DNA of 64,000 nt, from assembly GCF_000026545.1 (NCBI RefSeq), contig NC_011601.1, one strand, 5' to 3'. Both the position numbers and the translations under genes were made by a program. The DNA comes from Escherichia coli O127:H6 str. E2348/69 (GTDB lineage Bacteria > Pseudomonadota > Gammaproteobacteria > Enterobacterales > Enterobacteriaceae). Below are positions 3,901 through 4,434 of the stretch, piece after piece. The notes under the pieces are model-generated. The model made no database searches, was not told where the DNA came from, and saw nothing but the letters and a program-made list of their open reading frames with translations. Position 1 is the stretch's first letter, and each line of letters starts with the position of its first letter.

Positions 3901-4434
3901 AAGATTAGCCTGGAAGTCCTTGTTGTCTTTGGTACCCATGCGGGATGTTTTCTTTTTAACTAGTCAATAGGCCTCATTACCTGGCGTTGAGTTTTTGCAA
4001 TGGTGTAATAACCGCAACTTAAAGATGTGGAAAATGCGCGCCATTCATTTCGCCATTTATTATCACTGTACTCATTAATTAACAGAACACGTATAATGAG
4101 AGCCATATCGCAAAAATGAAAAAACGTTTTATAAAATCATTGCTTCATCATGAATTCAAATTCATCGATTAATATCAACAAGATACAAAAAGCACCATCA
4201 TTAAAATTCATTACAGTTACATTGATTTCATCAATGAAATGTAAAAATATATAAACTTGATGATTTAAGCATTTTCTTATACCCGTTCAGACGTTATTCT
4301 TATTTCAGATCATCGTCAGAATTGACTCCACGATCACATTTCGGACCGGCAGAAAGGAATTATTCTGCAAACAGTAATTATGGTGTTTTGATTTATCTTG
4401 CACCTCTCCACTTCTGGATATAAGGATATTAGGT

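Follow-up and report, generated by a model that had tools for sequence, protein, structure and literature searches.

The DNA between positions 4100 and 4240, upstream of ftnB, is in all likelihood non-coding. It is distal ftnB control DNA, AT-rich and covered by H-NS, in which an 18-codon open reading frame (ORF) would have arisen as a by-product of two motifs. This ORF is a chance feature and not a gene. The window analyzed is a stretch of 64,000 nucleotides from Escherichia coli O127:H6 str. E2348/69, and its spacer stretch at 3640-4434 matches E. coli E2348/69 at every position (100% identity).

Many components of this control region are already known, namely an FNR-consensus site, a CpxR box, the promoters P1 and P2, and a leader bound by CsrA. 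Because these regulatory signals are already in the literature, the finding itself is an ordinary one, and the statements below on occupancy by FNR and H-NS, on dependence on CpxR, and on binding by CsrA rest on published work. The additions made here are a corrected position for the FNR site, the allele carried by the window strain, and an explanation of the ORF by motif relics that would have outlasted the loss of a neighboring gene. A false small-gene candidate is removed, and the ftnB control map is corrected for this strain: the FNR-consensus site lies at 4165-4178, not at the second of two palindromes noted in this region, and it carries a minority substitution in one half-site. A mildly useful comparative by-product is that Escherichia lacks a DJ-1/PfpI gene that adjoins ftnB and a KdgR-like box elsewhere.

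The spacer between araF and ftnB

The span under study lies within a spacer of about 795-796 bp that separates araF, on the minus strand with its start at 3638, from the ftnB coding sequence on the plus strand (4435-4938). The flanking genes are araG and araF on one side and ftnB, yecJ, azuC/azuR, yecR, and ftnA on the other. Most of the spacer was found in 5,412 of 5,426 complete E. coli genomes, with no annotated feature under the match among the records listed, and the curated MG1655 record leaves the araF-ftnB interval empty. The spacer is richest in AT at 4100-4299, where GC content is 26.5%. Gene order and base composition bear out what a model working from the letters alone (hereafter the sequence-only reading) had said of the setting, which is that the downstream gene is ftnB and that the region is AT-rich. 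A search of 3600-4500 gave no Rfam match to a structured RNA at E values up to 1, and no terminator-like sites were found in 3790-5100.

Conservation is distributed unevenly along the spacer. Aligned with one another, eight Escherichia sequences show identity to the window of 62-99% in the araF control region (3640-3920), 31-77% across the filler and the span under study (3920-4220), and 79-100% from 4220 onward, where the ftnB core promoter and leader are located. For wider comparison, 38 ftnB loci were collected from other species. By blastn the E. coli spacer resolves into three parts: an araF-side part at 3640-3924 with a homologue in all genera, a part at about 3925-4100 present in Escherichia only, and a part at about 4103-4434 that is homologous to the DNA between the DJ-1/PfpI gene and ftnB in Citrobacter and Salmonella. 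Escherichia would therefore retain old, shared intergenic DNA (about 4103-4434) beside filler DNA that evolves fast (about 3925-4100).

The 18-codon reading frame and the probable ftnB transcription starts

The ORF occupies 4116-4172 on the plus strand, runs from ATG to TAA, and translates as MKKRFIKSLLHHEFKFID*. Its letters and coordinates, and those of the TATAAT hexamer at 4092-4097, are confirmed as first described. The spacer holds eight ATG-initiated frames of at least 18 codons within its 795 bp, against 7.64 +/- 2.18 in dinucleotide shuffles. The number of such frames is at chance level, and this one is unremarkable.

The position of the ORF relative to ftnB transcription is more informative. 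Pourciau et al. 2019 (PMC6686035) transcribed the ftnB leader with an SP6 primer ending ...GAAGATCATCGTCAGAATTGACTCCACG, and described an ftnB fusion carrying +1 to +152. The primer end ...GAAGATCATCGTCAG was used to place the P1 start. Assigning +1 to A4307 is favored because +152 then equals 4458, exactly the last base of codon 8, which would keep the fusion in frame. With this assignment the hexamer TATTCT at 4295-4300 falls at -12 to -7, so that P1 would span 4295-4307 on the plus strand, and in the genera compared this conserved -10 element reads TATGCT or TATTCT. By pNAD-seq (PMC13273102), ftnB has a further reported start about 66 bp away from its annotated start, and each of the two is an A. 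The corresponding promoter, P2 (4361-4373, plus strand), would use TATTCT at 4361-4366 and start at A4373, which is 66 nt after P1; its hexamer sits inside an invariant block of the three-genus alignment. The exact positions A4307 and A4373 are those we infer from these sources. CsrA represses ftnB translation through a 128-nt leader.

Counted from P1 on this map, the ORF covers -191 to -135, and its stop codon lies 135 nt upstream of A4307. The ORF is therefore wholly upstream of both inferred ftnB starts and outside any known ftnB transcript.

A separate transcript could in principle begin downstream of TATAAT 4092-4097, which is a perfect -10 hexamer on the plus strand with no matching -35. 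On reading the sequence, the best -35 available is TACTCA, with three of six matches at 17-bp spacing, and a promoter scan of 3600-5100 reported no site. The only sigma70 peak found for araF/ftnB in Table S2 of Myers 2013 (PMC3688515) maps to about 4306-4319 when the FNR 14-mer discussed below is used as an anchor, and this corresponds to P1, not to the hexamer. A weak start downstream of TATAAT may exist. Within Escherichia, the sequence ATAATG(A/C)GAGC around the hexamer has been retained somewhat better than the DNA flanking it.

The ORF could nevertheless be a translated leader peptide, or a young micro-protein specific to E. coli, that is expressed from this hexamer and acts on ftnB. Its ATG start, its Lys/Arg-rich N-terminus, and the TATAAT located 19 nt upstream would suit such a role, and the frame is open in E2348/69, MG1655, S4, DG342-2, and SCU-482. 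Like enteric leader peptides and upstream small ORFs, it is a short frame, from ATG to TAA, that precedes a regulated gene. Unlike them, it is off the ftnB mRNA, with at least 135 nt separating its stop codon from either start, and it has no ribosome-binding site, no terminator, antiterminator, or attenuator downstream, and no conservation. No Shine-Dalgarno sequence is present 5-10 nt upstream of the ATG (positions 4096-4118 read ATGAGAGCCATATCGCAAAAATG), and by inspection the sole purine run, GAGAG, ends 12 nt before it. The region is also bound by H-NS in K-12. The small-ORF supplement of Stringer 2021 contains no match to the ORF, a check of uncertain value given that no coordinate of the neighborhood matched either. 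The ORF is likewise absent from the annotation of MG1655 and of RefSeq genomes, among those listed.

Comparative evidence weighs further against a coding function. Each of the six Escherichia lineages other than E. coli has ATA, CTG, CTA, or CAA in place of the start codon, and in all six the frame is interrupted by in-frame stops or a 1-nt insertion. Conservation of the reading frame had been put forward as a check on the ORF, with its absence counting against the ORF, and neither start nor frame is kept in any of these sister lineages. Within E. coli, strain FRIK2069 of O157:H7 carries a TCA-to-TAA change that places a stop at codon 8, and in four other strains the replacements L-S, L-F, L-P, F-L, and F-S are seen against one synonymous change. 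The ORF zone is the least conserved in the Escherichia alignment, at 57-71% identity versus 79-100% from 4220 on. A 53-nt block covering its 3' half (4143-4195) is identical in 609 of 4,317 matched genomes, about 1,100 genomes being too divergent there for megablast to match, whereas a block of equal length at 4214-4266 has a perfect match in 4,854 of the 5,426 E. coli genomes (89%). As judged from these alignments, variation across the ORF follows the pattern of unconstrained DNA.

We consider a role as leader or micro-protein extremely improbable. Of the possibilities raised by the sequence-only reading, the leader peptide is not supported, given the location upstream of both ftnB starts as placed here, the missing Shine-Dalgarno sequence, the loss of start and frame in sister lineages, and the O157:H7 nonsense allele. 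The same reading had also allowed for chance features of AT-rich DNA, and this explanation holds for the ORF and probably for the first of the two palindromes as well.

Proposed motif relics and the FNR-consensus site

If the ORF is an accident, it appears to be one with an identifiable origin, in that its two ends coincide with motifs of the protein-binding type. The ATG would be supplied by the AATGAAA half of a decayed KdgR-like box, and the TAA falls within the TAAT spacer of an FNR-consensus site, TTGAT-TAAT-ATCAA. Under this proposal the encoded peptide would be under no selection.

The first motif is best understood from the gene that Escherichia does not have. A gene of the DJ-1/PfpI family (185 residues; Pfam PF01965, E = 1.4e-32) separates araF from ftnB, and is transcribed divergently from ftnB, in 25 of 38 loci. 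Its carriers belong to Salmonella, Citrobacter, Lelliottia, Enterobacter, Huaxiibacter, Silvania, and Leclercia, and the araF-ftnB locus of Escherichia is without it. No protein relic was recovered in Escherichia: tblastn returned noise only, and a profile built from 25 orthologues gave E > 1 against six-frame translations of both strands. A minus-strand ORF at 3960-4106 (MALIIRVLL...) had been considered as a remnant of the DJ-1/PfpI N-terminus, but the likeness was one seen by eye and the profile search did not support it. The distribution among genera suggests that the gene was lost in Escherichia rather than gained elsewhere.

The best-conserved dyad in the DNA between the DJ-1/PfpI gene and ftnB matches the KdgR operator consensus AAATGAAACAnTGTTTCATTT (PMC5559549). 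In Silvania, Leclercia, Huaxiibacter, Lelliottia, and Enterobacter, KdgR-like boxes with two to four mismatches are located 15-22 nt before the DJ-1/PfpI start, and in Salmonella and Citrobacter boxes with four to six mismatches are located 160-215 nt upstream of the gene. Both blastn and MAFFT align the E. coli sequence AAATGAAAAAACGTTTTATAA at 4114-4134 with these stronger boxes. This sequence contains the ORF ATG and is the best KdgR match in the whole E. coli spacer, at 15 of 20 positions (five mismatches). The alignment with a KdgR-like dyad is the reason for regarding the ORF start codon as the AATGAAA half-site of a decayed operator-like element.

In its alignment with boxes that adjoin the DJ-1/PfpI gene of other enterics, E. 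coli 4114-4134 resembles KdgR operators. It differs from them in its five mismatches, in the absence of the gene that the box presumably served, and in a match no better than chance. Three-mismatch matches to the KdgR core occur at the chance rate, so the E. coli box is not significant alone, and the KdgR core in E. coli was rejected as a site in its own right. Box quality also tracks the gene imperfectly, as Citrobacter Cu233 keeps a four-mismatch box with no DJ-1/PfpI gene found by pattern search. On comparative grounds, 4114-4134 is put forward as a putative KdgR-like box. The gene tpfX, which we take to belong to the ThiJ/PfpI family, may be pertinent here. According to its citation in PMC6127512, Rodionov 2004 predicted tpfX as a KdgR target. 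Because relics of the DJ-1/PfpI-KdgR region would remain in it, the E. coli spacer looks "gene-like."

The second motif is located at the other end of the ORF. The only match in the spacer to TTGAT-N4-ATCAA with at most two mismatches is TCGATTAATATCAA at 4165-4178, which overlaps the last codons and the stop codon of the ORF and is 42 bp upstream of palindrome 2. In MG1655 this 14-mer is the perfect TTGATTAATATCAA. The window strain reads TcGATTAATATCAA, with one mismatch that changes the left half-site to TcGAT, a minority allele among E. coli genomes. The commoner class among 53-nt blocks with one mismatch probably carries TTGAT, judging from MG1655, BL21, HB101, and O157:H7. Outside E. coli, only the right half, ATCAA, is conserved, and no FNR site with at most one mismatch occurs at the aligned place in other Escherichia, Citrobacter, or Salmonella.

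Published work on this site is not in full agreement. Table S6 of Myers et al. 2013 (PMC3688515) predicts the same 14-mer, TTGATTAATATCAA, for araF/ftnB with a PatSer score of 15.49, and records that it has no FNR ChIP-seq peak and overlaps an H-NS ChIP-chip enrichment. Together, these entries make it one of the "silent" sites of that study. Lemmens et al. 2009 found that FNR binds ftnB in vivo, and this ChIP-positive result conflicts with the missing ChIP-seq peak. Troxell et al. 2011, citing Partridge 2007, place FNR binding unusually far upstream of ftnB; the in vitro evidence that FNR binds there likewise goes back to Partridge 2007, as cited. Expression of ftnB is FNR-dependent in Salmonella, and the FNR study of Grainger 2007 makes no mention of the locus.

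With its center at about -135.5 from P1, the 14-mer is far from the usual positions for activation by FNR. In K-12 this site, about 135 bp upstream of P1, would lie under H-NS and would be unoccupied in anaerobic glucose medium; in the window strain the TcGAT substitution would weaken its left half-site. The resemblance to the silent, H-NS-occluded sites of Myers 2013 is close, as the K-12 allele is itself listed among them and the surrounding DNA is 26.5% GC. The window strain departs from that class in its TcGAT half-site, which belongs to the 53-nt allele found in 609 of 4,317 matched genomes.

The inverted repeats and the CpxR box

Three inverted repeats with arms of at least 7 bp and spacers of at most 4 bp are present in 4100-4240, against 0.21 expected (P ~0.004). 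Over the whole spacer, where nested repeats are counted, the number is seven against 0.48, and inverted repeats are about ten times commoner than in shuffles. The first, palindrome 1, is ATGAATTCAAATTCAT at 4150-4165 (ATGAATT-CA-AATTCAT, 7+2+7), whose reverse complement is the non-identical ATGAATTTGAATTCAT. Palindrome 2 is CATTGATTTCATCAATG at 4220-4236 (CATTGAT-TTC-ATCAATG, 7+3+7), about -79 from P1. The third, ATTTCAT-CA-ATGAAAT at 4225-4240, overlaps palindrome 2. The first two had been described as perfect palindromes; the coordinates are correct, but each consists of 7-bp arms around a non-symmetric spacer of 2 or 3 bp and so is not perfect.

Palindrome 1 could be an operator for ArgR. 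The core consensus of the ARG box is TGAAT-N4-ATTCA, and TGAAT-TCAA-ATTCA at 4151-4164 fits it. Against this identification, inspection of the sequence shows a single box, with no second one 3 bp away on either side, and the repeat is disrupted in strains DG342-2 and SCU-482 of E. coli, missing in the sister species, and located in a stretch opposite an 11-column alignment gap of Citrobacter and Salmonella. An ArgR operator here is most improbable, and to judge by this distribution palindrome 1 is E. coli-specific and most likely without function.

Palindrome 2 presents a different case. Its surrounding block, 4214-4266, is nearly invariant within E. coli, and its right arm, ATCAATG, is found Escherichia-wide within a conserved block beside the CpxR box. 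The left arm survives in E. coli and Escherichia sp. MOD1 alone, and is lost in E. albertii, E. whittamii, and three other Escherichia lineages. Palindrome 2 would thus straddle the edge of the conserved core promoter, and it may be either a lineage-specific operator or functionless.

One candidate function is that of a variant FNR site. The repeat had been described as resembling a pair of FNR half-sites with 3-bp spacing, and TTGAT and ATCAA do occur within it, each a perfect half-site. The FNR dependence of ftnB in Salmonella and the binding of FNR in vivo in E. coli lend the idea some background. What stands against it is the spacing, which is 3 bp in place of 4. Whichever N4 register is chosen, one half-site fits and the other agrees at only one of five positions, and for this reason palindrome 2 does not appear among the FNR matches with at most two mismatches. 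Moreover, the 14-mer predicted by Myers 2013 (PMC3688515) for araF/ftnB is a different sequence, TTGATTAATATCAA. The description of the half-sites and their spacing was accurate, but we see almost no chance that FNR uses this repeat.

Palindrome 2 might instead be the operator of a dimeric regulator of ftnB, or an extension of the region for CpxR-dependent activation, that originated in E. coli and its closest clade. Its 7-bp arms are unexpected in a span where 0.21 such repeats are predicted, and its position at about -79 places it immediately before the CpxR box. The identity of its block in 89% of 5,426 genomes contrasts with the far more polymorphic 4143-4195, and Escherichia sp. MOD1 retains both arms despite a C-to-T change in the spacer. 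These points are offset by the absence of the left arm from five Escherichia lineages, by other genera, which carry either a different inverted repeat or no inverted repeat here, and by a sequence that fits none of the consensuses compared. No consistent inverted repeat was found upstream of the CpxR box across genera (mean control fraction 0.41). We regard such an operator as possible but doubtful. Considerably less probable is the stronger proposal that palindrome 2, or with even less likelihood the ORF, is a recent ftnB control element specific to E. coli, whether as an operator acting with CpxR at -79 or as a de novo micro-protein made when H-NS is relieved. The general suggestion that regulator sites for ftnB reside here is correct insofar as the region is upstream control DNA; it does not extend to palindrome 2 as an FNR site. 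The FNR-consensus 14-mer at 4165-4178 and the CpxR box at 4241-4255 had both been overlooked.

The CpxR-type box, GTAAAaatatATAAA at 4241-4255 on the plus strand, directly follows palindrome 2 and lies just outside 4100-4240. It has one mismatch to GTAAA-N5-GTAAA, is centered at about -59 from P1, and hardly varies among Escherichia, Citrobacter, and Salmonella. Since ftnB is a reported CpxR-activated gene and a member of the Cpx regulon, phosphorylated CpxR is predicted to activate P1 through this box. The position near -59 and the regulon membership resemble those of CpxR-activated promoters that carry GTAAA-N5-GTAAA, whereas the second pentamer of the ftnB box, ATAAA, departs from the canonical sequence. 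In strains S4 and SCU-482, changes in the length of A/TA tracts would alter the spacing of the box; these are possibly assembly errors.

A near-invariant block, TTAAGcATTTTCTTAT at 4265-4280, covers the -35 zone of P1, and its conservation extends over 28 sequences that represent three genera. The block is similar to an RcsB box, TN(G/A)GAN4TC(T/C)NA, and ftnB responds to RcsB variants in Salmonella (PMC7913699).

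Conserved sequence at the two ftnB promoters

The -35 zone of P1, the ftnB promoter whose start was placed at A4307, is covered by the block TTAAGcATTTTCTTAT (4265-4280), which is almost unchanged in Escherichia, Citrobacter, and Salmonella. Within this block, TAAGgATTTTCTTA departs from the RcsB box TN(G/A)GAN4TC(T/C)NA at a single position. A response of ftnB to RcsB variants has been reported from RNA-seq experiments in Salmonella (PMC7913699).

A second TATTCT hexamer is followed by A4373, exactly 66 nt downstream of A4307, and these features (4361-4373) define P2, the inferred downstream promoter. 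This arrangement agrees with the downstream ftnB start reported by pNAD-seq in minimal medium (PMC13273102). Both the P2 hexamer and its start reside within an invariant block that also contains CsrA GGA motifs.

Strain variation at the FNR and CpxR sites

The high-affinity motif for H-NS is TCGATAAATT. Because the minority allele TCGATTAATA carried by E2348/69 at 4165-4174 is closer to this motif than is the K-12 sequence TTGATTAATA, the single substitution responsible for the weakened FNR half-site could, speculatively, also favor H-NS. The genes that flank ftnB, one on each side, are araF and yecJ. Both are listed among K-12 genes whose expression changes with O2 only in an hns stpA mutant (Myers et al. 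2013, Table S11; PMC3688515), and these entries are consistent with H-NS covering the ftnB neighborhood.

Strains of E. coli also differ in the length of the A/TA tract (4246-4252) inside the CpxR box. Compared with the window, the tract is 2 nt shorter in strain S4 and 1 nt longer in SCU-482, so that in both strains the two pentamers of the box would no longer be 5 bp apart. These may be true slippage variants or else assembly errors.

The araF side of the spacer and the DJ-1/PfpI gene

The araF-proximal part of the spacer contains two more inverted repeats, AACGAATG-A-CATTCGTT (3678-3694) and AATTTGTC-A-GACAAATT (3858-3874), each with perfect 8-bp arms. A large share of the enrichment of inverted repeats relative to shuffled sequences is due to these two. 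Separately, at 4088-4103, the motif ATAATG(A/C)GAGC around the TATAAT hexamer is better preserved among Escherichia species than the flanking DNA, and has no known promoter or start.

Of the 38 loci retrieved for comparison, 25, none of them from Escherichia, hold a gene for a 185-residue DJ-1/PfpI protein in the interval between araF and ftnB (L009, L012, L026-L032, L037, and others, at about 1940-2210 in locus coordinates). In Escherichia, and in the window itself, this interval has no such gene. In Silvania, Leclercia, Huaxiibacter, Lelliottia, and Enterobacter, a KdgR-like box lies 15-22 nt 5' of the DJ-1/PfpI start, and the boxes in Salmonella and Citrobacter are located farther away, 160-215 nt upstream of the gene.
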